DNA from: Bryobacteraceae bacterium
Lineage (GTDB): Bacteria; Acidobacteriota; Terriglobia; Bryobacterales; Bryobacteraceae
Length of the DNA: 64,000 nt
Reading direction: 5' to 3'
Assembly (NCBI GenBank): GCA_041484525.1
Contig: JBGPHT010000015.1
Span: 7,307-71,306, forward strand
Part shown: positions 17,655 through 60,711 of the stretch, piece by piece
Position numbering within the stretch: position 1 is the first letter of the stretch
Layout of the letters: each line of letters begins with the position of its first letter
The notes under the pieces: generated by a model
Seen by the model: the letters and a program-made list of their open reading frames with translations, nothing else
Databases searched by the model: none
What the model was told of the DNA's origin: nothing
Made by a program: the position numbers and the translations under genes

Positions 17655-17684
17655 ACGTGGAAGGCGTGACCGCGGCGCCCGCTG

Positions 17685-18749: not shown

Positions 18750-18943
18750 CTGTTATCTTCCCCCGAGGCCGCCCTTTCCGCAGGCGTGTACTCCACCTGA
18801 TGGTATCTGATTCACCCTGGTCATTCAATGGGTGCAAGGTAAGGGGTTATGGTACTCCGTACGATGTCATCCAACAGTTAATGTGAATCCCGCCGTTCGG
18901 TTAAGGTTCGCGGCGCATGGCACAATAGAGCAGAGCACGCCGC

Positions 18944-26739: not shown

Positions 26740-26811
26740 GCAGCCCAATTCTAACACCCGATTACTATCCTAAGTTCACCGCAAAACTTTGAAATCACGG
26801 GCTGTGCGACA

Positions 26812-33311: not shown

Positions 33312-33501
33312 AGATCGATTACGTCCCGCGTGCGTTAGAAGCCCTCGAAAACGCCCCCGCCGCCGTGCGCAAAGCGTTTTTCAAGCAGGTCATATTTCTG
33401 GAACAGAACTTGGCCCACCCCTCCCTGCACGCCAAAAAGTACGGACGCATCCAAAGACCTCTGGCAAGCCCGGGAACCGCATCATCCCTCACCCTAAGTA
33501 G
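33308..33501 (+). pseudogene. Degraded RelE/ParE-superfamily toxin gene (frameshift plus internal deletion)
   Basis: The N-terminus MKIDYVPRALEALENAPAAVRKAFFKQVIFLEQNLAHPSLHAKKY is in frame. KDLWQAR appears only in the +1 frame and NRIIPHPK-stop only in the third frame, ending at 33501. The 201-aa track ORF is read-through into the antisense of the heparinase gene. Confidence 0.45.
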
Positions 33502-35649: not shown

Positions 35650-37818
35650 ATGAAGCAAGTTCTGCGCAAGGGCCTGAAAGACATTGTCGTGGACGAAGTC
35701 CCGGACCCCATGGTCACGCCGCACCACGTTCTGGTACGGCCCGCGAACTCGCTCATCAGCAGCGGTACCGAGACCGCCAGCATCCACCAGGAAGGCATCA
35801 TGAAGGAGGTGGCCGACAACCCCTCGCACCTGCGCAAGGTGTGGGACGTCATGCTGGCCAACGGCCCCATGCGCACCCTGGCCGAGGTCCGCGCGAAGTT
35901 CAGCGACTACGCCGTGCTCGGCTATGCGGGCGCGGGCGTGGTCGCCGAGGTGCACCCCACAGTCCGCGATCTCGAGCCCGGCGATCGCGTGGCCTATGGT
36001 GGCGAAGGCACCGGCCACGGCGAGTGCATCATCACCGGCCGCAACCTGGTGGCGCGCGTTCCCGATGACGTGCCGTTCGATCAAGCCTGCTTCGCCACCC
36101 TCGGTTCGATCGCGCTCAACGCGGTGCGCATCGCGCAAATCTCGCTCGGCGATTCCGTGGTGGTCCTCGGCCTCGGCCTCGTCGGCCAGCTCATTGCGCA
36201 GCTCGCCCGCCTGCAAGGCGCGGTCGTGATCGCCACAGACCTCAAGCCGGAACGCGTCGATCTGGCGCGCCGCCTCGGTGCCAATCACGCCATCCCGGGC
36301 GGCGCCGGATTCCCCGAAGGCGTGGCCGCGGTCACTGCCGGGCGCGGCGCCGATTGCGTGATCGTGGCCGCCGCCGCCAAGTCCGATGGCCCGTGCCGCA
36401 CAGCGCTGGCCGTCTGCCGCGATCGCGGCCGCATCGTCGTGGTAGGCGCCGTCGAGATGTCGTTTCCGTGGAACGACATGTACCTCAAGGAAATCCAGCT
36501 CTTCATGTCGCGCGCCTACGGCCCCGGCAGTTACGACCCCGCCTACGAAAAGCAGGGCCGCGATTACCCCGTCTCTTACGTGCGCTGGACCGAGAACCGC
36601 AACATGGAGGAGTTCCTTCGCCTTCTCGCCGAGCGCCGTGCCGATGTAGCGCCGCTCATCACCCACCGCTTCCCGCTCGAGGAAGCGCCCGCAGCGTATC
36701 AGACGATTCTCGATCCCGCGTCCAACAGCCTCGCCGTGGTTTTGAATTATCCGCCGGCTAACAGCGCGTCACCAGTCACGCCAGTGCGCCGTGTCGAGAT
36801 CGCAGGCGCCCGTCCCGCGACTTCCGGTTTCCGCGTGGCGCTCGCCGGCGCCGGCAATATTTCGCGCTGGGCCCACATGCCCGCGTTGAAGAGCATCGGG
36901 GACGTATCGCTGCGCGCCGTCTACTCCGCCGGCGGCGCGCGCGGCAAGAGCTACGGGAAGCGCTTCGGCGCCGCCTACTGCTGCTCCGATTACGACGAGA
37001 TCCTGCGTGACCCGGAAGTGGACGTGGTGCTGATCGCCACCCGCAACCAGCTTCACGCATCCGAGGCCGCCCGAGCCCTGCGCGCCGGCAAGCACGTCTT
37101 CGTCGAGAAACCGATGGCCCTCACGGAGGAGGAATGCCGCGAGCTCACCTCCGCCGTCCACGAATCCGGCAAGCAGCTCACCGTGGGTTTCAATCGCCGC
37201 TATGCGCCTGACTACCTGGCAGTGAAGCGCACGCTGGCACGACGCTCCGGCCCCGCGGTGATTCACGCGCGCATCAACTCGCCCGGGATTTCGGGAGCCT
37301 ACTGGATGGCCGATCCTGCAATCGGCGGCGCCATTCTCGGCGAGGCCTGCCACTTCACCGATCTCTTCTACTGGCTGCTCGAGTCCGAGCCCGTCAGCGT
37401 TTCCGCGTACAGCCTTCCCACCAGCCAGCCCGACCCCATCGGCGAAAACAATCTGGTCTCGTGCTTCCGCTTCGCCGATGGCTCGATCGCCAATTTCACC
37501 TACTGCACCGTCGGCAGCCGCACCTCGGGCGGCGAGCGCGTCGAAGTCTTCGCCCCCGGCCTGGGCGCTTTCACAGAGGATTTCAAACGCGTCTCAATCC
37601 GCACCAGCGTCAGTAAGAACAGCTCGCGGATGTTCGCCGAAAAGGGCTACACGGCGCAGATGAAGTCCTTCTTCTCCGCCCTCCGCGAAGGACGTGCGCC
37701 AGAAGTTACGGTGCTCGATGGCGCCCGGTCCACCATCCTGGCGCTGCGCATGCTCGAAGCCGCGCGTACCGGATTGCCTGTGGAACTGAACTGGCGCAGC
37801 GCCGCTGAAACCTCATGA
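35650..37818 (+). CDS. Fusion protein: zinc-type alcohol dehydrogenase (MDR) domain plus Gfo/Idh/MocA NAD(P)-oxidoreductase domain
   Basis: The N-terminal half has GDSVVVLGLGLVGQL (Rossmann motif). The C-terminal half has FRVALAGAGNISRWAHMPAL and EKPMALT, the Gfo/Idh/MocA signatures. Total length is 722 aa. Confidence 0.8.
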   Translation: MKQVLRKGLKDIVVDEVPDPMVTPHHVLVRPANSLISSGTETASIHQEGIMKEVADNPSHLRKVWDVMLANGPMRTLAEVRAKFSDYAVLGYAGAGVVAEVHPTVRDLEPGDRVAYGGEGTGHGECIITGRNLVARVPDDVPFDQACFATLGSIALNAVRIAQISLGDSVVVLGLGLVGQLIAQLARLQGAVVIATDLKPERVDLARRLGANHAIPGGAGFPEGVAAVTAGRGADCVIVAAAAKSDGPCRTALAVCRDRGRIVVVGAVEMSFPWNDMYLKEIQLFMSRAYGPGSYDPAYEKQGRDYPVSYVRWTENRNMEEFLRLLAERRADVAPLITHRFPLEEAPAAYQTILDPASNSLAVVLNYPPANSASPVTPVRRVEIAGARPATSGFRVALAGAGNISRWAHMPALKSIGDVSLRAVYSAGGARGKSYGKRFGAAYCCSDYDEILRDPEVDVVLIATRNQLHASEAARALRAGKHVFVEKPMALTEEECRELTSAVHESGKQLTVGFNRRYAPDYLAVKRTLARRSGPAVIHARINSPGISGAYWMADPAIGGAILGEACHFTDLFYWLLESEPVSVSAYSLPTSQPDPIGENNLVSCFRFADGSIANFTYCTVGSRTSGGERVEVFAPGLGAFTEDFKRVSIRTSVSKNSSRMFAEKGYTAQMKSFFSALREGRAPEVTVLDGARSTILALRMLEAARTGLPVELNWRSAAETS

Positions 37819-38864
37819 AGGTCGTGCAGCTCGGGCCCTACCCGCCGCCTCATGGCGGCGTCCAGTCCAACCTGGTAGCTATCCGCGATTACGTCCGCCG
37901 CCAGGGACATGCCTGCGCCGTCATCAACCTCACGCGGCACCGCGGCGAGGAGCGCGACGACGTCTACTACCCGAGCACTCCCCAGGAAGTTGTGCGCCTA
38001 TTGAAGGCGGGCGGCTACGACATCATCCACCTGCACATCGGCGGCAATCTGCCGCTCCGGCTGCTGCTACTGGCTCTGGTCTGCACCCTGATCCCGCGCG
38101 CCCGTACCGTGTTCACGTTTCATTCGGGCGGCTATCCGTCGTCACCCGAAGGCCGGACGGCGCGCCCATTTTCTCTACGCGGATTCGTCTTCCGGCGCTT
38201 CGGCTGTGTCATCGGCGTCAACCCGCAATTGGTCGAGCTGTTCCGCCGGTTCGGTGTGGCGGCGGACCGTGCGCGCCTGATCTACCCACATGCCGTCCCC
38301 ACACTCCCCGAGGTCTCCGCCGAATTGCCCCCGCCCCTCCAGACTTTCTTCGCGGAACACGATCCCGTGCTCGTCACCGTCGGTCTGCTCGAACCCGAGT
38401 ACGACCTGCCGCTGCAGATCGAGACCATGGGCCGCATTCAGGAGCGCCTTCCGCACGCCGGCCTGATCATCGTGGGCGCAGGCAGTCTCGAGGCGGATTT
38501 GCGCGCCCGCATCCAGGCCGTACCCCACGGCCGCGACATTCTCCTATGCGGAGACGTGCCGCATTCGGCCACGCTGCGCACCATCACGCGCGCCGCCGCG
38601 CTCTTGCGAACCACGCTCTACGACGGCGATTCCGTGGCAGTTCGCGAGGCGCTACACCTGGGGACGCCCGTGATCGCCACCGATAACGGCATGCGTCCCG
38701 AAGGCGTCCACCTGATTCCCATCCACAATGCGGACGCCCTGGTGAACGCCGTCGCGCAGATTGCGGCGACCCCGCGCGAGACTCGCACACCGCCCAAAAC
38801 TGCCGACGAGACAAACCTGGAAGAGGTGTGGCGGATCTACACCGGCCTGCTTACGGAACGCTAG
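37815..38864 (+). CDS. Glycosyltransferase (GT-B, GT4-like)
   Basis: MKVVQLGPYPPPHGGVQSNL N-terminus and DSVAVREALHLGTPVIATDNGMRPEGV. It has an ATGA overlap with the upstream oxidoreductase gene. Confidence 0.7.
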   Translation: MKVVQLGPYPPPHGGVQSNLVAIRDYVRRQGHACAVINLTRHRGEERDDVYYPSTPQEVVRLLKAGGYDIIHLHIGGNLPLRLLLLALVCTLIPRARTVFTFHSGGYPSSPEGRTARPFSLRGFVFRRFGCVIGVNPQLVELFRRFGVAADRARLIYPHAVPTLPEVSAELPPPLQTFFAEHDPVLVTVGLLEPEYDLPLQIETMGRIQERLPHAGLIIVGAGSLEADLRARIQAVPHGRDILLCGDVPHSATLRTITRAAALLRTTLYDGDSVAVREALHLGTPVIATDNGMRPEGVHLIPIHNADALVNAVAQIAATPRETRTPPKTADETNLEEVWRIYTGLLTER

Positions 38865-41800
38865 TGACCTGTATCGGACCGCCTCGCAGAATGTTGTTCG
38901 AAGCGTCCCGATAAATGACCCGGTAGTACAAAATACGTTCCGGCAGTGCCGGAATCGCGACGCTGCACGTGGTGCTGCACGGGACACCGGAACCGTTCCA
39001 CGCCCCGCCCTTCGAAGCCATATCGGAGTTCACGAACCAGAACGGGTTGTCGCCGTCGAACCCATTCGCGGGCGGTCCGACAGTGGTCGAGATGCACGCC
39101 TCCCGCCGGCTGGTGCAGTAGAGGTTCAGCGCATCGTACCCGAACACCACCAGGACGTTGTCCACCCCGGTATCGGGCGGCGCCGTCACCGATAGCACCA
39201 TCGGGATGAACTTCGACCGGTCGTATTCATCCGTCGCGGGATAAGGCGGCAGCTTGCCGATCAGGTTGGAACGGAAGAGCATCCACTTGCCATCCGGACT
39301 CGCCTTGACATTGGTCGTTGCCGAACCCCTGTAGCCTTCGAAAATCCTCGTCAGCAGGCGTCCCCGTTCGAAATTCTTCAGCGGCCTGCCGTCGGCATCG
39401 GGCAATCCCCATTGCGCGTAGCCCGCGCCCAGCACGTTGAAATTGGCCACGCAGACATCGCGCCACCCGCCGTAAAACTCGCCCTCTTTGCACCAGGGCA
39501 CCGTCCGGTCGAGCGCCGGAATGTTGACATAGACATTTCCCGGCTGCGAGCCCGCCGTGCACTCTCCCCCGCGCCAGGCGTAGCAGACCCGGTACGCATC
39601 CGAAGCCTGGCCTGTGAGCACCGACTGCGGACCGCTGATGTCCGTCAAAGGCGATCCACCCGAAAACGCCGCCAGGTCGTAATGTTTGGGATCGATCGCG
39701 CCGGTGTACCGGTATTGATACAGGTCTCCCTCGATCGGCACCGCACTCATCGTGCCATTGCTCGCGTTCCCCGTGAACAGGTATGGATGGCCGTCCAGAA
39801 ACCACCGCTGATCCTCAGGCGGCGCGGCTTCCTGCGAATAGGAAGGATGCTTCTCGATGGCGTTGCCATACGGTGCCGACAGTTTTCCGCTGAACAGCGT
39901 CGGCAGCGCGATGCTCGTCTGGTAAGAACTGTCCTGCATCTTCGCCGGGTCGAAAGGCGCCAGCGACACGCCGTAATCCGGGTGCACACGGACGCCGTCG
40001 CGCCCGAACGCATGGTTCACGTACGCCGTCGGGAAGTACGTCGCCGGGTTGGACGCGTCCCCATCCTGTTGATAGAACCAGTGCGCTCCGCCCTGCAGGC
40101 AGTAGGCCGTCAACACGCTCCCGTTGGCATGCTCGCGCGGAAATTGATACGTCTGATCGGGGCCCACGCCGCGCTCCACGATATATTCCGCCGGGCCCTT
40201 CTTCTGCACGATCTGAATCACCTCGCCATCCACCGCCAGGGTGTCGCCGGGCGCGAATGGCTGCAGCCAGTGAAGATTCGACCGTTCCGAAACCGGCTCA
40301 CCCGCCTGCCATGCGCCGGGCGCGGTCCCCCAGGCGGCGTTCCACGCGCTCGCCGTCGTCAGCGTGCTGCAATAATTCTTTCCCGCGTAATTCACGCCGT
40401 TGACCGTCACCGGCGGACACGGATCGCAGTTGCCGACCCCCGCCTTGGTGCACACTTTGAGCGGCCCGTTTTGCGTCACGCGGAACGGATAATCCTTCTC
40501 GTTTTGAAATTCCGGCGTGGCGATTCCTTCGGCGCGGATGCTCTGGTACGTGTGCAGCGTGCACCAGCGCGACGCGGCGCGCGCGAACATCGGATCGGCC
40601 CCGATCGCCTGTTGGGTGTTGCCGAAACGCCCGGCATATCCGTTCCCGATGGGAAGTCCGTTGCCCAGGTCGAGCGCGAACAGCCACGCAAAACTATCCT
40701 GCTGATAATTGCGGCACGACACCACCACGCTATTGCCCTGCACCGACTCGAGCCCGCAATTCGGAAACGAACCGCGATCATAGGCAATGTCCTTCGACGC
40801 CGTGTAGCGGGTGAACTGTGCCTGCAGCGTGTAGTCGTCGTCCGCGCTGGTGCAATTGCGGAGACACGGCGTCAGGACCTGAAATTTGGCCGGGAGTTGC
40901 GGCCACCGCGCCGTTTCGGAGCCGTAGATATTGGCGGCTGGACACGCGGATGCCTTCTCGCCGCACGCCACGTCATTGCCCGTGTACGTCGCCTTCACCA
41001 GCACGCTCGGGCTGCCGGGATATCCCGACTGCGTCGAAAAATACATCACGTTGGCGTCGTTGTCGTCCCACAGAAAATCATTCAACGACGCGCCGTAGAA
41101 TTCCAGCCCGCTCTTGAGAACACCTACCGACTGGATAAACACGTACGCCATCCCCAGATACCGCACCGTCAGGGTTCCGTCGGCTTCCGTCCGCAGCCCG
41201 GCGATCAGACCGTTCCCGGCGTGGCAATGATAGAATCCGTTCCCGTCGGCCTTCTTGGCGCAGACGCGGTTGAATCCGCCCGACCCGTTTCCGAATGTCA
41301 CGTTGACCGCCGTCGCCGCCCGCCACCCGATCCACTCCAGGTTGATCGTGGATTGCGCCGTCGCGCTCTTCTTGCGCACCAGGATGCCGTACCGCGGATT
41401 TCCAGTCACGCCCGTCCCGTAGTAAAAAGGAATGCCGGTCGTGCCGTTGAAGTCCACGGCGAGCGCGCTTTTCAGCGTCGCCTGCGGTGCGTCCGCGGAG
41501 CAATCCAGAGACTTCACCGCGGGATACTGCGCCGTCGCCGACGGGCTGTTGTAAATCGTCAGCGTGTCGTCCGGCCGCACCCGGCGGCAATCCGCCGCAT
41601 TGGTGAAAAACAGCTTCGTGTAATCCGCGCTGGTGTTGTACACATACCCTTTTCCGGTTCGCGAATCGCCCGCCGGCAGACTGTCGAGCGTCAGCAGATC
41701 GCCCGGCGTGGCCGGATTCCGGCAGGGCGCCCCGTCGCCGCACAGCGCGATCGTAGCGTCACCGCCGGTCAGATCCACTTCCCGAATCGGCGCTTCGCAA

Positions 41801-42654
41801 TGCGCGCCGTCTTCATCCACGCCGTACCGCGTGATGCAGACTTCGACCGTCTGCCCGCCGCTCGAGCAATCCGGCCCCGAGCAGTATCCCTTCAACAGGA
41901 TGTTCTGAAACGAGAGCGAGCTCGACGGAAACGTGGAATTGTACGGAAAGGGTGGATTGCGCAGCCACAGCCAGTCGCGCCTGTTGCCGGAATACGAGGC
42001 GTAGGCGCCGTCGGCGGTCAGCGCCGCGCCGGGATTGCTCCAGTTCCCCGACGCATCCTCGGCGGCTGTGAAGGACGCGCCGCTCTCCGGCGTAGATCCA
42101 CCGTATGCCCACCCCAGCGTGTTGACGTTGTAAATCAGCATGCCGGTCTTGGGATCGACGATAGTGGGCTGCAGGAGCGTGTTAGCAGATGGCTGCAGAT
42201 ACTTTCCAGGCGCCGCAAGGTCGGTCTCGAGCGCGTCTATGTGGGTCGAACCAAGCGGAATGTTGGCCGTTCGGAAACTGTCCGTTGCCGTGTCGTTCCC
42301 GCACCTGATCCGGAAGTAGTGTGCGGTGTTGGTCTGGAGCGCACGGCTATACAACAACCCGACCGGCGTCCGCTCCGTGCGGCGTGCGCCGATCACGAAA
42401 ATGCGCTGCTGGTCCTGCGCGATATTCCCCGGACGGTCGTCGCGATTGGAATTCGGAAATAGCGCCGGATCCACGTCGTGCACCAGGGGCTGAAAGGTCG
42501 CCGACTCGCTGACCTCGACGGTGCAAGCACCCGAATCCGGTGCGGTATAAGAGAGAATCGCCTGCGTCGGCGTCTTCCCCATGACCTGGACGTTGCTGAT
42601 GGCGGCAAATGCCATTCCTGCACTGCCAAACAGGACAAGAGCGGCACGTACCAT
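38851..42654 (-). CDS. Giant secreted hypothetical protein B (1267 aa), paralog of 42729..46508
   Basis: Signal peptide MVRAALVLFGSAGMAFAA. An FN3-like opening reads ISNVQVMGKTPTQAILSYTAP. There are many Cys pairs and a PD40-like NVKASPDGKWMLFRSN near the C-terminus. It is colinear with the upstream paralog along its whole length. Confidence 0.8.
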   Translation of the reverse strand: MVRAALVLFGSAGMAFAAISNVQVMGKTPTQAILSYTAPDSGACTVEVSESATFQPLVHDVDPALFPNSNRDDRPGNIAQDQQRIFVIGARRTERTPVGLLYSRALQTNTAHYFRIRCGNDTATDSFRTANIPLGSTHIDALETDLAAPGKYLQPSANTLLQPTIVDPKTGMLIYNVNTLGWAYGGSTPESGASFTAAEDASGNWSNPGAALTADGAYASYSGNRRDWLWLRNPPFPYNSTFPSSSLSFQNILLKGYCSGPDCSSGGQTVEVCITRYGVDEDGAHCEAPIREVDLTGGDATIALCGDGAPCRNPATPGDLLTLDSLPAGDSRTGKGYVYNTSADYTKLFFTNAADCRRVRPDDTLTIYNSPSATAQYPAVKSLDCSADAPQATLKSALAVDFNGTTGIPFYYGTGVTGNPRYGILVRKKSATAQSTINLEWIGWRAATAVNVTFGNGSGGFNRVCAKKADGNGFYHCHAGNGLIAGLRTEADGTLTVRYLGMAYVFIQSVGVLKSGLEFYGASLNDFLWDDNDANVMYFSTQSGYPGSPSVLVKATYTGNDVACGEKASACPAANIYGSETARWPQLPAKFQVLTPCLRNCTSADDDYTLQAQFTRYTASKDIAYDRGSFPNCGLESVQGNSVVVSCRNYQQDSFAWLFALDLGNGLPIGNGYAGRFGNTQQAIGADPMFARAASRWCTLHTYQSIRAEGIATPEFQNEKDYPFRVTQNGPLKVCTKAGVGNCDPCPPVTVNGVNYAGKNYCSTLTTASAWNAAWGTAPGAWQAGEPVSERSNLHWLQPFAPGDTLAVDGEVIQIVQKKGPAEYIVERGVGPDQTYQFPREHANGSVLTAYCLQGGAHWFYQQDGDASNPATYFPTAYVNHAFGRDGVRVHPDYGVSLAPFDPAKMQDSSYQTSIALPTLFSGKLSAPYGNAIEKHPSYSQEAAPPEDQRWFLDGHPYLFTGNASNGTMSAVPIEGDLYQYRYTGAIDPKHYDLAAFSGGSPLTDISGPQSVLTGQASDAYRVCYAWRGGECTAGSQPGNVYVNIPALDRTVPWCKEGEFYGGWRDVCVANFNVLGAGYAQWGLPDADGRPLKNFERGRLLTRIFEGYRGSATTNVKASPDGKWMLFRSNLIGKLPPYPATDEYDRSKFIPMVLSVTAPPDTGVDNVLVVFGYDALNLYCTSRREACISTTVGPPANGFDGDNPFWFVNSDMASKGGAWNGSGVPCSTTCSVAIPALPERILYYRVIYRDASNNILRGGPIQVTSVP

Positions 42655-42728
42655 CTCTTGAGTCTAATTCATCTCTTACGTTTCCAATAGTTAACGGCGT
42701 ACTAGATTGGTTAGGTTATCCACTTACT

Positions 42729-45700
42729 TCACGGCACCACCGTAACCTGCAGCGGCGACGTCGCGATCACGGCCTGCGACGCATTCCGATACGACCAGCG
42801 GTAGAACACTACCTTGCCCGAGATCGCCGGAATCGCAATCGTACAGCCGCTGCTGCAAGGCATCCCGGTCACACCCGTATCCCCGCCCACCTCCGTCGGC
42901 CACACGAACGGGTTAACCTCGTCGATGGCGCTCTTGGTCGCGACGCACTTCTCGGTTCGCACGGTGCAATATAGGGTTGTGGTGTATCCGAACTCCACCA
43001 CCGCGTTATTCACACCCGCGCTCGCCGGCGGTTTCAGGTTCACCACTACCGGGCTGAAACTCGTTCGCACCACGCTGTTGGCCGCGGGATACGGCGGCAG
43101 CTTCAGAACGATATTGCTACGCAGCATGATCCACTGGCCGTCAGGCGTTGGTTTCGTATTGGAAGTCGAGGAACCTCGAAACGGTTCGAAAAGGCGCGTC
43201 AATACTCTCCCGCCCAGAAAATTCCTCACCGTCAGTCCACCCGTATGCGGCAGCGCCCATTGTGCATAGGATCCCCCCAGCACGTTGAAATTCACCGCGC
43301 AGATGTCGCGCCATCCGGAGAAGAACTCGCCCTCCTTGCAATAGTTGACAGTCAGGTCGAGCACCGGAATATTCATGTAAACGTCACCCGCGGTCGAGCC
43401 CGAAGTACACTCGTTATTCACCAGAGCCCGGCATGCCTTGTAAGCATCCGCGCTGGTACCGGTGACGACGGAGCCCGGGCCGCTGACTTCGCGCAGCACA
43501 TTCGCGCCCGCAAACGCGGCCAAGTCGTACTGTTTGGCGTCGATCGTCCCGGCGTACCGGTATCGATAGAGGTCGCCCGAGATTTTCACCGCGCTAAATT
43601 GTGTCGAACCGGAATTCCCGGCAAACAGATAAGGGTGCCCGTCGACGAACCAGCCCTGATCGTACGCCGGCGCATCTTCCTGGCCATACGAGGGATGCTT
43701 TTCGATCGTGTTGCCCGACGCGAATGACTGCTTTTGCGCATACGTGTCCGGCATGACGATCAGCGAGAAGTAAGACAGATCCTGCATCTGGGACGGAGTG
43801 AAAGGCGACAGCGAGACGGCGTAATCCGGATGCACACGAACGCCGTCCCGCCCGAACGCATGGTTGACGAAGTCCGTTGGGAAATACGTGCTGGTCGTAC
43901 CCGTGCCGTCCGGATCGAGTTCATAGAACCAATGGGCGCCGCTGAATTCGCAGCCCGTGGGCCAGACGCTGCCGTTCCCTTGCGCCCGCGGAAATTGATA
44001 GGACTGGTCGAATCCTACGCCGCGCTCCACGATGTACTGCGAAGGTCCGTTTTTCTGAATTACCCGAATCACCTCGCCCGCCGACGTGAGTTCGTCGCCA
44101 ACTCCCAGAGGTTGCATCCAGTGGAGGTTGGCAAGCGTCGATACCGGCTCACCCGTTGCAAACCCGGCCGGCACCGCCCCCCAGGCCCCGTTCCAGGAAG
44201 TGGTGGTGTTCAGCGTTCCGCAGAAGTTCTTCCCGGTATAGTCGGTGCCATTCACCACCACCGAAGGGCACAGATCGCAGTTGGCGCCTCCCAGCTTGGA
44301 GCACGCGGGCAGCGAGCCGGTTTGGGTCACTTTGAAAGGCTCGATTTTCTCGATCTGAAACTCCGGTGTTGAGATTCCCTCCTTGTGAACATTCTGGTAC
44401 GTGTGCAGCGTGCACCATTTGGACAGGCCTCGCGCAAATATCGGGTTGGCGGCGAACACCTGCTGCGTATTCCCGAAGCGGCCCACAAATCCGGCGCCGA
44501 TCGGCAAACCATTCCCCAGGTCGAGTGCGAATACCCAGGCAAAACTGTCCTGCTGCCCCTGCCGGCAGGCAGCCAGCAGCGTGCTCCCAGCCACCGCCTC
44601 CAAGGCGCAATTGGGAAACGAGCCCTGGATGTAAACGGTGCTCTTCGATGCGGTGTACCGCGCAAACTGCTTTTCGAGCGAGTAGTCGTCGGCCGGGTTG
44701 AGGCAGCCATTCAGGCACGGCGTCAGTATCTGGAAAGTCGCCGGCAACTGCGGCCACCGCTGCGTTTCGCTGCCGTATGGATCGGGCGGCGGACAGGCCG
44801 ACCCCGCCGTGCCGCACACCAGGTCGTTTCCCGTGTACGTGGCTTTCACTAACTGGGTTCCGGAATTATCGGCGTAGCCCCTGGACGCGAAGTACATGAC
44901 ATTCGGATTCGTGTCGTCCCATAGAAAATCGTTCGCCGCCGGGCCGTAAGTCTGAAAACCGGATTGCAGCCCATAGCCTTGCCCGAACAGCCACGCCATG
45001 CCGAGAAACCTCACCGTGATGTTCCCATCGGGCTCGGTGCGGATGCCGGTGATCATGTTGTTCCCAGCGTGACAGTGGTAAAAGCCGTTGGCGTCCGTTC
45101 GCTTCGTGCAAACCCGGTTGAAGCCGCCTGACCCGTTGGCGAACGTCGTATTCAGCGCGCTCGCCCCCACCCATTTGGCCGAATTGATATAGATCGTCGA
45201 GCTTGCCGTGGCGCTGCTTTTTCGGACCAGTATTCCGTACCGTGGATTTGCCATTCCGGTGAAATAGTAGAACGGAATCCCCGTCGTGCCGTTGTAGTCC
45301 ATGATTACCGAAGAGGACATCACCGCTTGTGGTGGATTGGCGCCGCAGTTCAACGATGAGAGTGTGACGCTGAACGTCACCGCCGACGGGCTCACATACA
45401 TCAAGACGGTTTCGCCCGGCCACAGCCGGCGGCAGTCGTTTAGGCTGCCAAAAAATATCTTCGTGTAATCGGCCGACGTGTTGTACACATAGCCATCACC
45501 CACCACGGAATCGAATTTCGGAAGCCGGTCGAACAGCATGATGTCGCCCGGTTTGGATGGCTGCTGGCACAGTGCGCCATCCCCGCAGATCCGGATGGGC
45601 GACATCACGTTTGCCAGCGCCACGGTCCTTATTGGATTCTCGCAATGCGCGCCTTTTTCGTCGATCCCCAGGCGCGTGATGCAAACGTCCACCAACTCCC

Positions 45701-46508
45701 CACCCGTGCCACAGGCCGTACCGGCACACATTCCTTCGAGAATGATGTTCTGATACGAGAGTTCGTTCTGCGTGAAGGTCGAGTTGTCGGGATAGAAATT
45801 CAGCCGGAACCACAGCCATTCCTGCGCGTTGCCCGGATAGGCCGCCCAATTCGTATCCGTGGCCAGTGCGAACGAGGGATTCGTCCAGTGGCCGGAGGGG
45901 TCCTGCACATCGCTGAAGGCCACCCCCGCCGCGCCGCTGCCCGACCCGTACGACCAACCGGACGTGTCGATATTCTTCGCCAGCACACCCGTCTTCGGGT
46001 CCACGATTTCCGGGAACAGAGATTCGTTGTTGGATGGCCAGAGATACGCCCCGGGATTGTTCGGATCCGACTCGAGCCCGTCCATGTGAGTGCTGCCCAG
46101 CGGTGGATTCAGCGTCCGGAATTTGCCGGTTGCGACGTCCGCCCCGCACGTTACGCGGAAATAGTAATCCGAATCCGCCTGTAGCGCGCGCGAATACTTC
46201 GCCCCCGATCCCGCCCGTTCCACACGCGGCTTTCCGGCTACAAACGTCCGCGTGCGGCCCAGCGTCAGCGACCCGGACCGGCTGTCCTGATCTTCTCCCG
46301 GAAACAACGCCGGGTCCACGTCGATCGCGAGCGGCGTGTAGCCCGGTTGCTTGCTCGCCTCGAACTTGCAGGCCTGACTCGTCGATGCCACGTAAGCAAT
46401 CACCGCCTGCGTCGGCGTCGTGCCCAGCACCCGGACATTGGTGATCTGCGCAGCCGCGATCCCCGGACCCAATACCGCCAGAACCGTCACTTCGCGTAGT
46501 CTTACCAT
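42729..46508 (-). CDS. Giant secreted hypothetical protein A (1259 aa), paralog of 38851..42654
   Basis: The start MVRLREVTVLAVLGPGIAAAQ (complement of 46506-46508) overlaps the stop of the upstream gene (ATGGTAA). The same motif order as protein B is present: ITNVRVLGTTPTQAVIAY..., WCTLHTYQ, HPDY[GA]VSL, EKHPSY, TPDGQWIMLRSN. Confidence 0.8.
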   Translation of the reverse strand: MVRLREVTVLAVLGPGIAAAQITNVRVLGTTPTQAVIAYVASTSQACKFEASKQPGYTPLAIDVDPALFPGEDQDSRSGSLTLGRTRTFVAGKPRVERAGSGAKYSRALQADSDYYFRVTCGADVATGKFRTLNPPLGSTHMDGLESDPNNPGAYLWPSNNESLFPEIVDPKTGVLAKNIDTSGWSYGSGSGAAGVAFSDVQDPSGHWTNPSFALATDTNWAAYPGNAQEWLWFRLNFYPDNSTFTQNELSYQNIILEGMCAGTACGTGGELVDVCITRLGIDEKGAHCENPIRTVALANVMSPIRICGDGALCQQPSKPGDIMLFDRLPKFDSVVGDGYVYNTSADYTKIFFGSLNDCRRLWPGETVLMYVSPSAVTFSVTLSSLNCGANPPQAVMSSSVIMDYNGTTGIPFYYFTGMANPRYGILVRKSSATASSTIYINSAKWVGASALNTTFANGSGGFNRVCTKRTDANGFYHCHAGNNMITGIRTEPDGNITVRFLGMAWLFGQGYGLQSGFQTYGPAANDFLWDDTNPNVMYFASRGYADNSGTQLVKATYTGNDLVCGTAGSACPPPDPYGSETQRWPQLPATFQILTPCLNGCLNPADDYSLEKQFARYTASKSTVYIQGSFPNCALEAVAGSTLLAACRQGQQDSFAWVFALDLGNGLPIGAGFVGRFGNTQQVFAANPIFARGLSKWCTLHTYQNVHKEGISTPEFQIEKIEPFKVTQTGSLPACSKLGGANCDLCPSVVVNGTDYTGKNFCGTLNTTTSWNGAWGAVPAGFATGEPVSTLANLHWMQPLGVGDELTSAGEVIRVIQKNGPSQYIVERGVGFDQSYQFPRAQGNGSVWPTGCEFSGAHWFYELDPDGTGTTSTYFPTDFVNHAFGRDGVRVHPDYAVSLSPFTPSQMQDLSYFSLIVMPDTYAQKQSFASGNTIEKHPSYGQEDAPAYDQGWFVDGHPYLFAGNSGSTQFSAVKISGDLYRYRYAGTIDAKQYDLAAFAGANVLREVSGPGSVVTGTSADAYKACRALVNNECTSGSTAGDVYMNIPVLDLTVNYCKEGEFFSGWRDICAVNFNVLGGSYAQWALPHTGGLTVRNFLGGRVLTRLFEPFRGSSTSNTKPTPDGQWIMLRSNIVLKLPPYPAANSVVRTSFSPVVVNLKPPASAGVNNAVVEFGYTTTLYCTVRTEKCVATKSAIDEVNPFVWPTEVGGDTGVTGMPCSSGCTIAIPAISGKVVFYRWSYRNASQAVIATSPLQVTVVP

Positions 46509-49162
46509 GATGCGATCGCCACCCTTCTCCAGCCATTCGCCTGGAAACAGATATAGAGAAAACTTCCGTCCGCCGCCCACGATCCGGAATCGCAGGTGGT
46601 GACGGCAGTTGCCGGGACCCCCACCCGCAGTCCCACCAGGCTGGTATCGAGCGCCAGATTCGTCGTCGCCCCAAGGTCCGCCGCGATCAATCCCACGCCC
46701 GGCGCGATGGCCTTCCCCGCACTGTACGCCGCCCGCTGATCCAGACCGCCGCTCACGTCAAACCTCACCGTCAGCCCAACCGGCCATGTGGCTGTCCACG
46801 TATATAGCGGAATCGAATCCAGCGGAAATGCAGGCACCGCCGCTTGCACCGTACAGTTCCCGCACGACAGCGTGTCTCCCGCCGGGAAGTTGTGCCCCGC
46901 GGTCAAAGCGCCCGACCGTGCGATGTAGATGAACACCGTGCCCGCGCCCAGAGTGGCGCCGCCCACCGTCAACGTCGAACTCTGCGTGAATGAGAAAGTC
47001 GTGCTTCCGAGCCGCACGTTGCACGGCGTGGTAACGCTGCACCCCACTCCGATCTGCAGCGTCACTGACGTCGTTCGCACCACTCCGAAATCGCCGAGTT
47101 GCGCACCCATGGTTGCTGCGCCTCCGCCCCCCGAGCCGGTCTGCGGCTCCCACTGGCTGCTCCCGGCGTTCCACCCCAACACCTGGCCGCTTCCCGGCGC
47201 CGCCGCCGATACCGCCCGGTTCTGCAGCGCCGTCACCGTATTGGTGCTCAGATCGCCCGTCACATCTCCCGCCGCGGTATGCGAATGGCTGGACGGCGAT
47301 TTCGAATTGATCTGTGTCTGAATGTCGCTGCTCACGTTCTGCAGAAACGCGAAGTGCGTGCTATCCACTGCGCCCGAGCCGATCTTCGTGGCATCAATCC
47401 CGGAGGGCAATTGACTCAAGGTCGCCGTCCCCGAAATATCGCTGAACGCATAGTCGGCAACCTGTTTCAGGATGGTTCCTGTGCGCCCGAAGACACTCAG
47501 CACCGAGCCGCCCCCGCCTCCCCCTCCACCGCCCGAGCCGCCGGAGCCGTTCACTACGCAGTGGCCGGTCTGGGCCGTGGTGAAATTGACCGTCACGTCG
47601 AACGTCGTGGGGTGCACCGTCACCGTGTCGGGCTCGATCTGTTTCGCCGGCGTGGCCGCGTCGTAGCACGCCACCACCAGATTCGCCGTGGCGAAACCGT
47701 GCGCCGTGGCGGCCATCACGATGCTGGTCTGGCTGACGAAATCGAGTCCGTAATTCTTCCCCGTGCCGGTGGGGACCCAGGCCGTGCCGTTGTAGAATTT
47801 CAAGCTGTTGCCATCCGCCGAATCCGCCGCCACGTCGCCGCTTTGGGGCGCACTGGGCAGCACGGCCGGCGCCACGCGCAAACCAGGGTTGGTGGCGCTG
47901 GCCGTGAACGTCTGCCGCGCGCCCGCCGAGAAGATCGTCGCCGCGGTCTTATCCACTGCATTGGTCACTTGCGAGGCCGAGTAGTCGCTCGCCTGTGCCG
48001 TCACCGTTCCCGTCCGCCCGAAAACGCTGCCCACCGAGGCCGGGGCCGCCGCCGTGATCACCCAGGAGGTGCCGTCGAACACTTTCAACTTATTCGAGTC
48101 GGCGGAATCGATCGCCAGGTCGCCGCTGGCCGGAGAACTGGGCAGCGTGGACGGCACGATCCGCAGTCCCGGCAGCGTACTCCCCGCCGTGAACGTCTGC
48201 CGCGCGCCCGCCGAGAACGTATTGGCCGCGGTCTTGTCCGCCGCGTTCGTCACCTGCGCCGCCAGGTAGTCGCCCGACTGCGCCGTCACGGTTCCGGTCC
48301 GCCCGAAAATGCTAGTGATGTTTCCGCCCCCCGACGTCCCCGCTGTTGCAATCCATGAGGTCCCGTCGAAATACTTCAGCTTGTTCACATCGCCCGCATC
48401 TATCGCCAGGTCGCCGCTCTGGGGCGCCGTCGGCAGTACCGCCGGGATCACGCGCAGGCCCGGTTGGCTGGCGCTTGGAGTGAAGGTCTGTTTCGCCCCC
48501 GACGTGTACGCGGTGGCGGCAGTTTTATCCACCGCGTTCGTGATCTGCGAGACCAGATAGTCGCCCGCTTGCGCCGTCACCGCGCCGGCTCGCCCGAAAA
48601 TGCTGGTGATGAGGTCGGGCGGCGCGACCGTCGTCACCCAGGCCGTTCCGTTGTAGAATTTCAGCTTGTTGCTGTCGCTCGCATCGATCGCCAAGTCCCC
48701 GGTCTGGGGCGCGCTCGGCAGCGTGGACGGCGCTACGCGCAGCCCGGTCAAAGTGGCGCCCGGCGTGAACGTCTGCTTCGCCCCGGCGGAGTAGCTATTG
48801 GCCGCGGTCTTATCCACCGCATTGGTGATTTGCGCTGCCGTGAAGTCGCCCGTTTGCGACGCCACCGTCCCAACGCGGCCGAAGACCGTCAGCACCGCCG
48901 CCGAGCTTTGTAGGGTCCACGTATCCGTCGTAGTGCACAGATACAGATTCTTCCCGGCCGGGGCGCTAGTGCTGAAGAACGCCGCTCCTATCGAGCACGT
49001 GGATGGAAGCGTAACGCCGGTCTTAAAGGGTTTGGTCGAGGGTGCGGCCGAGAAATCGACGGTCTTGCCTTGCGTCGACAGGCCAATTCGCGTCTGGCAA
49101 TTGACCCTGTACAGCCCCGCACCGATGACCGCCAACGCGATCGGAAAACGCCATGTCTGCAT
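46502..49162 (-). CDS. Secreted repeat protein with phage-tail-fibre-like repeats
   Basis: Start MQTWRFPIALAVIGAGLYRVNCQ (complement of 49160-49162). It has four tandem ~95-aa repeats beginning [VI]FGR[VAT]G[TA]V[TA][AS]Q, a fifth partial copy after a poly-Gly linker (GGSGGGGGGGGGS), and Cys-bracketed end modules. Confidence 0.8.
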   Translation of the reverse strand: MQTWRFPIALAVIGAGLYRVNCQTRIGLSTQGKTVDFSAAPSTKPFKTGVTLPSTCSIGAAFFSTSAPAGKNLYLCTTTDTWTLQSSAAVLTVFGRVGTVASQTGDFTAAQITNAVDKTAANSYSAGAKQTFTPGATLTGLRVAPSTLPSAPQTGDLAIDASDSNKLKFYNGTAWVTTVAPPDLITSIFGRAGAVTAQAGDYLVSQITNAVDKTAATAYTSGAKQTFTPSASQPGLRVIPAVLPTAPQSGDLAIDAGDVNKLKYFDGTSWIATAGTSGGGNITSIFGRTGTVTAQSGDYLAAQVTNAADKTAANTFSAGARQTFTAGSTLPGLRIVPSTLPSSPASGDLAIDSADSNKLKVFDGTSWVITAAAPASVGSVFGRTGTVTAQASDYSASQVTNAVDKTAATIFSAGARQTFTASATNPGLRVAPAVLPSAPQSGDVAADSADGNSLKFYNGTAWVPTGTGKNYGLDFVSQTSIVMAATAHGFATANLVVACYDAATPAKQIEPDTVTVHPTTFDVTVNFTTAQTGHCVVNGSGGSGGGGGGGGGSVLSVFGRTGTILKQVADYAFSDISGTATLSQLPSGIDATKIGSGAVDSTHFAFLQNVSSDIQTQINSKSPSSHSHTAAGDVTGDLSTNTVTALQNRAVSAAAPGSGQVLGWNAGSSQWEPQTGSGGGGAATMGAQLGDFGVVRTTSVTLQIGVGCSVTTPCNVRLGSTTFSFTQSSTLTVGGATLGAGTVFIYIARSGALTAGHNFPAGDTLSCGNCTVQAAVPAFPLDSIPLYTWTATWPVGLTVRFDVSGGLDQRAAYSAGKAIAPGVGLIAADLGATTNLALDTSLVGLRVGVPATAVTTCDSGSWAADGSFLYICFQANGWRRVAIASW
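47765..48886 (-). repeat. Four in-frame tandem coding repeats (periods 95, 97 and 95 aa, about 285-291 bp) inside the tail-fibre-like gene
   Basis: Repeat starts are at residues 113, 208, 305 and 400 of the track ORF. The consensus is FGRtGtVtAQsGDY..aQvTNAvDKTAA..fSAGArQTFT....pGLRv.P..LPsaPqSGDLAID..D.NkLK.f.GTsWv. Confidence 0.9.
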
Positions 49163-49264
49163 GGTTATTTTTGGGTTGTTTCGGAGGCTGTCCTCCGAAG
49201 TCCAAATATCCCAGCCGCACATGCGCTTGAACCGTGCCGTTGCGCTAAGCGTTTGAAAATGGGC

Positions 49265-50407
49265 TTAAAAAAAATCGGTTGAGCTTGTGACGGGCGCCCG
49301 CTCGATCCAATCCGCAATCGCCCGCTCGATCCGTTCGCACGCATGGCCGTCCCCGTACGGATTGTGGATATGGGACATGCCTTGATATGCCTCCGGATCG
49401 TCCAGCAGCAGTTCGGCCTGGCGCACGATTCGCTCGGTATCGGTCCCTACCAGCCGCACCGTCCCGGCGTCGACCGCTTCCAGCCTCTCGGTCTTATCGC
49501 GCAGCACCAGCACCGGCTTGCCCAGTGACGGCGCCTCTTCCTGAACTCCGCCCGAATCCGTCAGCAGCAGATAAGAGCGGCGCATCAGGTCGACGAAGTC
49601 CACGTACTCGATCGGATCGAGCAGCGTGATGCCGCGCGTCCCTCCCAGCAGCCGCGTCACGGGAGCAAGCACATTCGGGTTGCGATGCACCGGATAAACG
49701 ATCTGCACGTCCGGACGCCGGGCCAGGCGGTTCAGAGCCTCGCAGATGCGCTCGAACCCAGCGCCGAAGCTCTCGCGCCGATGCGCTGTCACCAGAATCA
49801 GTTTGCGGCCCGGATCCAGTTCGTCCCAGCGACGCGCCGTCAGCCGCCCCAAAAGCAGCGCGTCCCGCACATGCAGCACCGCGTCGATCCCCGTGTTGCC
49901 GGTCACCGAAATCGCCGCCGCGGCCACGCCTTCGCGCAGCAGATTGTCGCGCGCCGATTCGGTGGGCGCGAAGTGCAGAGCCGCCAGGCGCGTCGCGATC
50001 ATGCGGTTCAATTCCTCTGGGTAGGGCTGGTAGAGGTCCCCCGTCCGCAACCCCGCTTCGACGTGGCCGACCGCGATCCGTTGATAGAACGCCGCGAGCG
50101 CTCCCGCCATCGTGGTGGTGGTATCGCCCTGGACCAATACCAGGTCCGGACGCTCCTCCGCCAGCACCGGTTCAAGCGCCGCCAATATCCGCGCCGTGGA
50201 TTGCGAAAGCGTCTGCCCCGGCAGCATCAGGTCGAGGTCATAATCGGGCTCGATGCCGAACGCTGCCAGCACCTGGTCGAGCATCGCCCGATGCTGCGCC
50301 GTCACGCACACCTTGATTTCGAACGCCGCGAGCGAGCGCAGATGCAGCACTAGCGGCGCCAGTTTGATCGCCTCGGGCCGCGTGCCAAAAATGAAGAGTG
50401 CCCGCAT
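49265..50407 (-). CDS. wecB: UDP-N-acetylglucosamine 2-epimerase (non-hydrolysing)
   Basis: [20 protein letters not shown]-terminus and [10 protein letters not shown]. The start is set at the complement of 50405-50407. The track ORF has an unlikely 35-aa extension. Confidence 0.9.
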
Positions 50408-50465
50408 GTCTGGGCGGAAACAACCATTGTACAGTCCCGCCCCGCGCCCGTATGCTTGTAAGGTA

Positions 50466-51089
50466 GTGGGACGATTCATCCGTCGCGTGTGGCGCATCGC
50501 CGTGGGAGCCATGGCTCTCCTCGGCTTCCTCTACGTGCTGGTCAGCGCCACCCCGCTCACCATCTGGTGGGCGCGCAAACTCGCCGGCCCGTGGAACGAC
50601 CCGCGGGGTGAGACCGTCATCGTGCTCGGCGGTTCCGTCATGGAGGGCGGCATCGTGGGGCTGAATTCCTACTGGCGGACCATCTATACCCGCCTGGTCT
50701 ACCGCGAGGGTGGCGTCCGCCGCATCATCATCTCGGGAGGCGCGCCGGACAACCCCATCTCCGAAGCCATGAAGGGATTTCTCGTCTGTCAGGGTCTACC
50801 CGGCGACGTCATCACCACCGACACCAAAGCCCTCAGCACGCGCGAAAACGCCGTCAACGTGGCCGAGATTCTGAAAGGTGACACCAGCCGGAAAATCCTG
50901 CTGACCAGCGACTATCACATGTACCGCGCCTGGCGCAGTTTCCGAAAGGTCGGCCTGAACATGGAACCGCGCCCCTTTCCCGACGCCATCAAGCAAAGTC
51001 AAAACTGGATGGGACGGTGGCCGAGTTTCCTGAACCTATCCATCGAAAGCGCTAAGATCGCCTACTACTACGCGCGCGGATGGATCTGA
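50466..51089 (+). CDS. YdcF/ElyC-like (DUF218) membrane-anchored protein
   Basis: VIVLGGS, IIISGG, TRENA and [11 protein letters not shown] are DUF218 motifs. The start is uncertain: GTG 50466 gives a basic N-terminus plus a TM segment, and ATG 50511 is the alternative. The upstream part of the track ORF is antisense to wecB. Confidence 0.6.
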
Positions 51090-60258: not shown

Positions 60259-60699
60259 CTAGACCGCGATACTCTCGCCATGCTGCGCTTCGATTTGCGC
60301 CGTCGGTGGCGCCGTCTTCACGCCTAACAAGTTCAATAATGAGGTTGTCGCCGCGTCGTAATCCTCGAGCGCCTTCGCCTTCGGATCCACGTCCACGATC
60401 ATCTTGTGCAGCCGCGCCGATTTGCCGATCGCCTGGTCCGTTCGAATGGCCTCCACCACCGGAATCTTGTAGGTGTCGCTCAACTGGCTGATCATCTTCA
60501 TTACTGCATCCGTCAAACCATACCGCCGATTCACGATTGCTGGCAGCAGGGCAACCGGCCGGATCGGAGTCCGGACGCTGTCGCCGATCGTCTGCGCCGA
60601 AAAGATGGTCGCGCCGGCGCCTGAAACGCTTAGGGTGTCCATCGAGATCGGGATCAGCACGTTCTGGCAAAACACCATCGAACAAGCCTGGAGCAGGGA
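60259..60699 (-). pseudogene. parA: ParA/Soj-family partition ATPase, C-terminal ~145 aa only (N-terminal Walker A half missing)
   Basis: [24 protein letters not shown]...LLPAIVNRRYGLTDAVMKMISQ...IPVVEAIRTDQAIGKSARLHKMIVDVDPKAKALEDY matches the distal half of ParA. No KGGxGKT motif is present. The upstream part of the track ORF is antisense to the permease fragment. Confidence 0.6.
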
Positions 60700-60711
60700 A
60701 ATGGAGGGCGC

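Follow-up and report, generated by a model that had tools for sequence, protein, structure and literature searches.

A phage-fibre-like protein and two giant, predicted exported paralogues encoded together in a Bryobacteraceae glycan locus: a candidate module for binding or processing polysaccharide

What is a protein resembling a phage fibre doing beside two giant paralogues in the middle of a bacterial glycan locus? The question is raised by a stretch of 64,000 nucleotides (hereafter the window) from a Bryobacteraceae bacterium of the phylum Acidobacteriota (NCBI GenBank assembly GCA_041484525.1, contig JBGPHT010000015.1, positions 7,307 to 71,306 of the forward strand), in which three co-directional minus-strand genes, here called A, B and C, lie between a wecB-type epimerase gene and a block of glycosyltransferase, oxidoreductase and heparinase-like genes, a location proposed in an earlier reading of the letters (the sequence-only reading) and borne out by Pfam annotation of the neighbours. 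A encodes the fibre-like protein, and B and C encode the two giants. Because genes for fibre-type and giant proteins sit together in about two-thirds of the related genomes examined, the two kinds of protein probably work together on the cell-surface glycan. Few groups of bacteria are more abundant in soil than Acidobacteriota, Bryobacterales and Solibacter relatives among them. Their extracellular polymers are thought to be important for soil aggregation and desiccation survival, yet next to nothing is known of the proteins that handle them.

All three genes are found in the ORF (open reading frame) listing where the sequence-only reading had put them (Table 1), and the stop/start overlap of A and B, the 74-bp AT-rich spacer without terminator between B and C and the 14 bp shared by C and the convergent GT4 gene could each be read in the sequence. 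The A/B junction reads ATCATGGTAAGA, with the ATG of B 4 nt ahead of the TAA of A and an overlap of 7 nt, and no terminator-like hairpin was seen on the minus (coding) strand in either the A/B or the B/C junction. Since stop and start overlap, terminator-like sites are lacking and the adjacency is kept in other genomes, A, B and C probably behave as one unit and are likely co-translated. Spurious long ORFs do arise in high-GC DNA, and one of 1016 aa lies antisense inside C; the reading frames of A, B and C are nevertheless real and not high-GC artefacts, because they have the coding signature of a high GC content at the third codon position (0.76-0.80) and hundreds of homologues each. GC at codon positions 1/2/3 is 0.56/0.59/0.80 in A, 0.55/0.50/0.76 in B and 0.58/0.51/0.79 in C, and GC content and codon usage of all three match the host locus. 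No RNA family was found in the window by an Rfam scan. The ORF enclosing A (46502..49222, minus strand) has an alternative upstream ATG at 49222 and an internal ATG at 49162, and public annotations differ accordingly in the start (906 vs 886 aa); of the two, the shorter form agrees with the putative signal peptide and with the alignment of homologues. Signal peptides were recognised by a rule of thumb, from hydrophobicity and by eye: the short hydrophobic N-terminal stretch reported earlier is present in A, B and C alike, but an Ala-X-Ala-like cleavage site follows it only in B (AAA|Q) and C (AFA|A), not in A.

Table 1. Positions of the three genes, their junctions, the protein modules they encode and neighbouring glycan genes, numbered from the first letter of the window
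Feature	Position	Strand	Basis or remark
Gene A	46502..49162	-	ORF listing; 886 aa, start MQTWRFPIALAV
Gene B	42729..46508	-	ORF 42729..46580(-), ATG at 46508; 1259 aa; identical to homologue entry P0004
Gene C	38851..42654	-	ORF listing; 1267 aa
ATGGTAA overlap, B start codon/A stop codon	46502..46508	-	Sequence read
B/C intergenic spacer	42655..42728		74 bp, 38% GC vs ~63% for the window
Overlap of C 3' end with convergent GT4 gene	38851..38864		14 bp
A_N module, A residues 23-90	48893..49096	-	~70 aa, two invariant Cys; 24-instance alignment and hidden Markov model (HMM) built from it
Four tandem 95-97-aa repeats, A residues 91-472	47747..48892	-	FGRxGxVxAQxGDY...GDLAIDxxDxNKLKxYxGTxW
C-terminal tip module, A residues 826-886	46505..46687	-	tblastn to phages; phrog_17312
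N-terminal domain, C residues ~20-135	42250..42597	-	Most conserved segment of the family; possibly FN3-like
Core module, C residues ~783-1150	39205..40308	-	Most widespread part among distant relatives; holds invariant polar residues
C-terminal beta-sandwich, C residues ~1150-1267	38854..39204	-	DSSP strands 1015-1130 of model; perhaps Ig/FN3-like
wecB-type UDP-N-acetylglucosamine (UDP-GlcNAc) 2-epimerase	49265..50512	-	Pfam Epimerase_2 at 2.9e-120; 102 bp upstream of A, co-directional
GT4	37815..38864	+	
ADH_zinc_N + GFO/IDH/MocA fusion	35650..37818	+	
Heparinase II/III-like	33494..35581	-	
Wzy_C	26812..28209		
PMT_2 GT-C	833..2437		

The partnership was surveyed in GTDB species representatives, where two peptide patterns derived from 8 close homologues retrieved 41 loci with a member of the giant family, a retrieval that biases the sample toward closer relatives; one further locus, present in two copies (L001/L002), was added by exact look-up of the homologue P0030, giving 42 independent loci. 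Genes in these loci were called by a simple heuristic of ORFs and third-position GC, backed by six-frame HMM and tblastn searches. With the HMM of the N-terminal module of A (here called A_N) and tblastn, we found in 29/42 loci a same-strand ORF with this module that ends just ahead of the giant ORF, usually at a distance of 0-240 bp and often overlapping it, and in one more locus such an ORF on the divergent strand; a conserved neighbourhood, which had been named as a check on the sequence-only reading, is present. Overlapping stops and starts suggest that an A_N protein and its giant are made together. Most related loci hold one giant and one or two A_N partner proteins; a single giant is the norm, and tandem giants as in the window occur in L003, L004, L034 and probably L006. 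The partners are of several kinds, namely long A-like fibres of 600-850 aa, short proteins of ~290-410 aa with A_N and a distal domain, and proteins of ~330-380 aa in which a Gly linker joins A_N to a head of another type. The order fibre, second A_N protein, giant is recurrent, and when A homologues were taken as the start it was found in two of three loci (L046, L048).

Such tight coupling could also mean that B and C act on the A_N proteins themselves, helping the fibres to mature, fold or attach much as tail-fibre assembly proteins do, and the position of the translationally coupled giant directly downstream of A_N genes, together with the high conservation of both A_N and the giant N-terminal domain, would suit such a role. 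However, giants lack a same-strand upstream A_N gene in 13/42 loci and also in L050, the invariant core residues are kept by 30 aligned members, at least 20 of them from outside the neighbourhood survey, so that no dependence of the core on A_N is apparent, and known fibre chaperones are much smaller than the giants. We consider this explanation very improbable.

B and C are full-length paralogues (56% identity, 1256 aligned residues) with 32 Cys each, all at aligned positions, in agreement with the Cys-rich paralogues first described, and 15 of the 32 Cys in C, with neighbouring pairs, are kept in at least 90% of 38 family members (B, C and 36 others). Scans of B and C with Pfam, NCBIfam, PHROGs and PADLOC gave no match, no Pfam or PHROG family recurred among the 38 members at E<=1, and searches of the PDB with a single sequence and with three family profiles returned nothing usable. 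No Pfam or NCBIfam family of CAZy-type glycoside hydrolases (GH) or polysaccharide lyases (PL) was found in B or C, and no Pfam GH or PL in any of the 38 members; SLH, S-layer and adhesin Pfam domains were likewise absent from B, C and the members scanned. Sorting signals (PEP-CTERM/exosortase, the C-terminal domain of the type IX secretion system, SLH) had no Pfam or NCBIfam match and the N-termini contain no lipobox, C ending in ...QVTSVP within its beta-sandwich; the earlier statement that no known catalytic or sorting motif is recognisable was upheld by these empty scans, and a search for a well-characterised family to which the giants might belong found none. From their sequences, we take the giants to be an undescribed, fairly large protein family outside any characterised one, with members of ~1200-1400 aa. 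A search of 1.84 billion representatives (clusters at 50% identity) with a profile of C residues 471-1150 matched 911 at E<=1e-3 and 378 at E<=1e-30, nearly all of Acidobacteriota metagenome origin; those homologues that have a taxon name belong to Bryobacteraceae, Solibacter, Terriglobia and related metagenome-assembled genomes, and for one locus the bin is Rhodospirillales, perhaps through mis-binning. A prophage or plasmid origin of the giants was rejected, as tblastn of the family against 50,697 phage records and 72,556 plasmids found no match.

Two parts of the giants stand out by their conservation. The N-terminal domain of C has a sliding-window conservation of 0.55-0.67 and is 40-55% identical even in relatives that are ~28% identical overall; the FN3-like character once ascribed to it gains slight support from weak PhoD_N/Pur_ac_phosph_N matches (E 0.07-0.1) in 3/38 members but none from fn3 itself, which matched neither B nor C. 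The core module is the segment to which many matches of the representative search are limited (profile positions ~313-692, equal to C residues ~783-1150), and an alignment of 30 diverse members with a mean column identity of 22% shows ten invariant residues (E811, R828, W859, H881, S1007, C1024, E1031, C1032, Q1081 and R1099 in C numbering) and five near-invariant ones (D804, H936, D954, D1005, N1044). Ten invariant residues, most of them polar or charged, would at such low identity suit an active or specific ligand site better than a scaffold. The C-terminal sandwich of C has conserved Cys pairs of its own (1180/1187, 1226/1230). Distant relatives join the core to PKD, He_PIG, Big_1/7/9, DUF11, PA14, Laminin_G_3/DUF2341 and PG_binding_1 domains, and others to Ig-repeat stalks with a TIGR03437-like end; judged by family, these appended domains are of the accessory type found in extracytoplasmic proteins and none is catalytic. 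Conserved Cys pairs, N-terminal hydrophobic segments and the accessory domains of relatives point to action outside the cytoplasm. The giants share phylum, very large size and predicted export with the TIGR03437 ('Soli_cterm') proteins of Solibacter and other Acidobacteria, and the Joint Genome Institute (JGI) named family members P0060 and P0072 after TIGR03437; they differ in that B and C have no NCBIfam match, TIGR03437 included, and that the giant core is separate from the TIGR03437 C-terminal domain.

When residues 136-1267 of C, leaving the N-terminal 135 aa outside, were modelled with AlphaFold and 45 homologues, an all-beta, multidomain fold was predicted (pLDDT 88.2, pTM 0.86), with a core-module pLDDT of mostly 82-96 and short dips to 66-69. 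Foldseek searches of this model against the PDB and BFVD gave no convincing neighbour (best E ~1e-5, template-modelling score (TM) <=0.21 even when target-normalised), so that the predicted fold is unmatched by solved structures. The low-probability matches comprised Sevenless/ROS1 ectodomains, Bacteroides hybrid two-component sensor domains, phage tail-tip proteins, legume lectins and the PL25 lyase 5uas (TM 0.21), and one FN3 match, 2h41, had a probability of 0.99 over 117 columns, its position within C 136-1267 being unplaced. Beta-propellers and beta-helices are the usual folds of phage depolymerases (PMC11326577), and the weak best Foldseek matches of the giants include propeller proteins as well as the PL25 lyase; however, given the low TM values, a propeller fold is not established. 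The PD40-like blades that had been suggested near the C-terminus gained no support, PD40 matching neither B, C nor the 36 other members even at E<=1, and no PD40/TolB-like propeller could be recognised in the giants in general (no propeller Pfam at E<=1 in the 38 members; Foldseek propellers at E>=1.8e-5, probability <=0.25 and TM <=0.21).

Large, all-beta, disulfide-rich exported proteins encoded as tandem paralogues in a locus of the exopolysaccharide (EPS) type might also be expected of a non-catalytic matrix, coat or adhesin scaffold, either Bap1/RbmC-like or S-layer-like, with A as a surface fibre and the glycan locus simply housing matrix genes. Vibrio cholerae offers a precedent: its rbm genes, between vps-1 and vps-2, encode the paralogues RbmC and Bap1 (47% sequence similarity; propeller and lectin domains), the FN3 protein RbmA and the phage-tail-protein-related RbmB (PMC11451748). 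The two systems are alike in that secreted proteins are encoded inside an exopolysaccharide region, that each has two large all-beta paralogues and one phage-tail-related component, and that FN3-type domains are present (rbm) or suspected (giants). They differ in that A, B and C have no sequence or detectable structural homology to Bap1, RbmC, RbmA or RbmB (no PDB sequence match links Bap1 or RbmC to the giants, and neither was among the top 50 Foldseek matches), in the ~1260-aa size and unmatched domain set of the giants, in phylum, in that the cassette is known from genes alone, and in that the coupling of a fibre gene to a giant gene and the A_N module common to the partners have no rbm counterpart. 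The likeness is best read as an analogy in logic, not as membership. Stalks of Ig, PKD or He_PIG domains and a TIGR03437-type C-terminus, as are usual in proteins displayed on the surface, occur in relatives; these features and the failure to detect any catalytic family in the giants would agree with a scaffold, whereas the invariant, mostly polar or charged residues of the core, the lack of SLH, S-layer or adhesin Pfam domains and the lack of homology to Bap1/RbmC speak against it. On balance a scaffold seems to us unlikely, though it is the likeliest of the alternatives to a giant core that binds or processes glycan.

Several further forms of the giants were seen in related loci. Giants of L009 (4124-8239) and L019 (4642-9063) contain a ~95-aa insert like the distal C-terminal domain of A (E 2e-7 and 3e-5), and these inserts suggest an exchange of modules between partner proteins and giants. 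A single frame of 2873 aa in L007 (5123-13741) consists of a ~1620-aa N-terminal extension, with other Ig/FN3-like and further domains, and a complete giant-family protein, and an ORF with three A_N-like modules lies just upstream. L050 (8001-13748; contig_53381_np1212, ERZ26871208) encodes a 1915-aa, 31%-identical relative (P0011) in the slot of A, B and C, between wecB and GT4 plus ADH/GFO oxidoreductase genes exactly as in the window; by inspection P0011 has about eight Ig-like repeats and a TIGR03437-like C-terminal domain, and it has no jelly-roll middle and no A_N. A Rosetta-stone fusion of A_N with a giant was sought among these long frames and rejected, P0011 being without A_N and the L007 ORF adding other domains. 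Shortened members of ~880 aa, the middle region missing, occur in L010 (7497-9671) and L011 (7478-9652), directly downstream of a 724-aa secreted protein with the motif VMDDGWFG...DRAGLGDW, GH36 alpha-galactosidase-like by eye. In L017 (7750-9846) and L018 (7742-9844), both without A_N, a gene for a ~700-aa polytopic membrane protein, possibly GT-C/Wzy-like by inspection, lies directly upstream of the giant, and in L014 a Wzy_C gene takes that position.

The partner encoded by A resembles in sequence the receptor-binding proteins of phages and would be exported, and the sequence-only reading, which had called it a receptor-binding fibre, was supported by PHROG matches and by tblastn to phage tail proteins. 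A matched phrog_16348 at 6e-19 (4 stretches) and phrog_17312 'tail protein' at 1.8e-9 (residues 825-886), and 214 homologues were collected. The A_N module at its N-terminus, aligned at 54% mean column identity with invariant G27, P31, C34, G37, G48, N50, C54 and W60, is also present in the partner proteins encoded upstream of giant genes elsewhere; a search of a 5.8-billion-protein database with its 70-aa profile matched only fragments of ~100 aa, whose architectures were uninformative. The four tandem repeats that follow share 58-64% pairwise identity and are visible at the protein level only, no DNA tandem repeats being found in A, where the copies are too diverged; residues 154-462, within the repeats, have 27.5% identity to minor tail proteins of Arthrobacter phages (tblastn). 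Beyond the repeats come an Ig-like domain at ~470-540 (confidently modelled), a Gly-rich linker, a distal beta-sandwich at ~690-810 and the C-terminal tip. In tblastn this tip paired, at 41-54% identity, with the very C-terminal ends of tail fibres and tailspike depolymerases from phages of Klebsiella, Escherichia and Serratia, K64-1 S2-6 among them. The AlphaFold monomer model of A was poor (pLDDT 54, pTM 0.29), being confident in small beta modules only, among them A_N at residues 45-85, and low confidence fell exactly on the linkers of the FGRxGxV repeats, an outcome to be expected if the protein is oligomeric; because the model was poor, the fold search with Foldseek was uninformative. One relative of A, P0150, has a Beta_helix domain (right-handed beta-helix). 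The label 'trimeric autotransporter adhesin', given by JGI to several A homologues, was discarded, A having no YadA-type anchor, Hep_Hag or HIM Pfam match and its C-terminus matching phage fibre tips and not a YadA-type anchor.

Partner proteins of the other loci matched phrog_863, phrog_13893, phrog_4775 (pre-neck appendage), phrog_1171 (tail spike) and phrog_17312, families that include tail-fibre-assembly, tail, tail-spike and pre-neck-appendage proteins. Like phage receptor-binding proteins, A and the partners combine a conserved N-terminal module with exchangeable distal parts, match PHROG tail families and carry the tip of Klebsiella depolymerases and fibres; in contrast to them, the A genes lie in a chromosomal glycan locus, their products have signal-peptide-like N-termini and their giant partner has no phage relatives. 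The shared modules and the matching architecture raise the possibility that the cassette is a phage-derived element, be it a prophage remnant, a tailocin-like particle or an anti-phage decoy that occupies or destroys a receptor glycan. However, no virion genes (capsid, portal, terminase, sheath, tube, baseplate) were found among the annotated genes of the window, in which a few small ORFs were left unscanned, or in the inspected loci, the giants match neither PHROG families (38 members) nor phage or plasmid records, PADLOC defence models matched none of A, B and C, and GC and codon usage are those of the host locus. We regard a phage-derived element as scarcely probable. A and phages have modules in common that may have passed in either direction, and the domesticated fibre proposed in the sequence-only reading is thus no more than a possibility.

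That locus, which takes up most of the window, includes, besides the genes of Table 1, an initiating sugar transferase (Bac_transf), a DegT aminotransferase, several GT4s, a GT2-methyltransferase, GHMP and PfkB kinases and a DUF218 protein, and the set of wecB epimerase, GFO/IDH/MocA, DegT and AsnB presumably resembles the pathway to the di-N-acetylated, amidated mannuronic acid of Pseudomonas B-band O-antigen. Similar genes recur near the giant family elsewhere (AsnB, GT4, Wzy_C, wecB and heparinase II/III-like). The most frequent neighbours are AsnB-type genes, in 13 loci under a looser and 12 under a stricter BLAST clustering, wecB adjoins the cassette also in L048, L050, L014, L032 and L043, and in 10 loci the flanks of the giant gene contain Wzy_C. 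Polymer-processing enzymes such as AlgL, PslG, PelA and BcsZ are encoded in EPS operons, and the giants are like them in being predicted exported proteins of a polysaccharide locus whose core has invariant acidic, basic and His residues.

The presence of Wzy_C genes allows another explanation, in which A, B and C are O-glycosylation substrates of nearby Wzy_C-type (O-oligosaccharyltransferase-like) or PMT_2-type enzymes, as in S-layer clusters. Wzy_C genes occur in the window and in the flanks just counted, immediately adjacent at least in L014, PMT_2 GT-C genes occur in the window and in the JGI locus, A has a Ser+Thr content of 23%, and S-layer glycan clusters adjoin their target genes. But an ordinary O-antigen polymerase or ligase would account for the Wzy_C genes equally well, neither a glycosylation sequon nor an S-layer domain came to light, and the most constant neighbours are sugar-nucleotide enzymes (AsnB, wecB, oxidoreductase) and not oligosaccharyltransferases; moreover, a substrate role leaves the tight coupling of A_N and giant and the invariant polar site unexplained. 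We therefore hold it to be improbable.

The explanation that we favour, at somewhat less than an even chance, is that the cassette encodes an exported two-part module that binds or processes the polysaccharide of its locus, with variable fibre or spike subunits and a constant giant core. The glycan-binding or glycan-remodelling apparatus supposed in the sequence-only reading is thereby supported in part, while its adhesin or envelope-layer alternative would be a matter of conjecture. A, B and C would be exported and, beyond the cytoplasmic membrane, would act jointly on the glycan that the locus produces. The giant, with its conserved N-terminal domain and invariant polar site, would be a constant ligand-binding or catalytic core for a constant feature of that glycan, and the A_N partners, whose distal parts vary by locus (repeat fibres, jelly-roll-like heads, spike-like segments), would associate with the giant and supply variable glycan recognition and, in some loci, cleavage. 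The complex may then bind, trim or organise the cell's own extracellular or O-antigen-like polysaccharide, and would in that sense be a counterpart, encoded by the cell, of the matrix and dispersal proteins in the V. cholerae vps/rbm cluster. Export and disulfide formation, the physical association of A with B/C, the glycan as ligand or substrate and any catalysis are all things that we infer from sequence.

Several observations weigh against this explanation. No A_N ORF was found in 12/42 loci, some of them with short flanks, the giant of L050 likewise lacks an A_N partner and L047 has a stand-alone A homologue, so the pairing of A_N and giant is frequent and not obligatory. The giants have no likeness to a CAZy-type Pfam family, a lectin family or a solved structure, and for that reason calling them 'carbohydrate-active' rests on gene context. 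The heparinase II/III-like protein of the locus could be the polymer-cleaving enzyme, and no secretion system or known sorting signal was found that would account for passage of the outer membrane.

A bolder form of the two-part module, to which we give a modest chance, is an envelope apparatus in which a giant platform of new fold, possibly a new carbohydrate-active family, has exchangeable subunits like phage receptor-binding proteins plugged in via A_N; such an apparatus could be a cellular counterpart of the phage baseplate with its fibres, recognising and processing the cell's own surface polysaccharide. If the giant core is catalytic, it would represent a new carbohydrate-active family, and if it is a docking platform, bacteria would have put modular receptor-binding proteins of the phage style to work in the biology of their own surface. 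For the present the cassette is best filed among secreted proteins within polysaccharide loci that incorporate phage-type receptor-binding modules, built on an undescribed family and a newly recognised 70-aa module. It offers three handles for further work, namely a family of ~900 clusters of ~1300-aa exported proteins with a confident, unmatched model, a 70-aa partner marker, and a genomic signature that ties giants and A_N to one type of glycan locus, with AsnB, wecB, GT4, oxidoreductase and heparinase-like genes.

Other parts of the window were characterised in passing. The 584-aa product of a minus-strand gene at 25003-26757 begins with a signal-peptide-like segment and matches nothing in Pfam, and its homologues (42-44% identity) adjoin the giant gene in L003-L006; it was dismissed as a relative of the giants, with which it shares a 26-residue motif only. 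At 21041-23594 (plus strand) a lower-GC island (58-60% vs ~63%) interrupts the glycan locus with two ORFs, the first of 515 aa with a C-terminal region (~290-430) that is HEAT-type helical-repeat-like by eye and the second of 341 aa with a DLLITSPPF motif typical of N4/N6 DNA methyltransferases, and this island is probably an inserted restriction-modification pair. Genes for MacB_PCD/FtsX-type permeases lie at 30272-32929 (minus strand) and 60537-62387 (plus strand), within and at the edge of the glycan region, and one of these permeases has 885 aa with duplicated domains. Further, at 15768-20872 two divergent asparagine-synthase paralogues flank a radical-SAM/SPASM gene (17685-18749).

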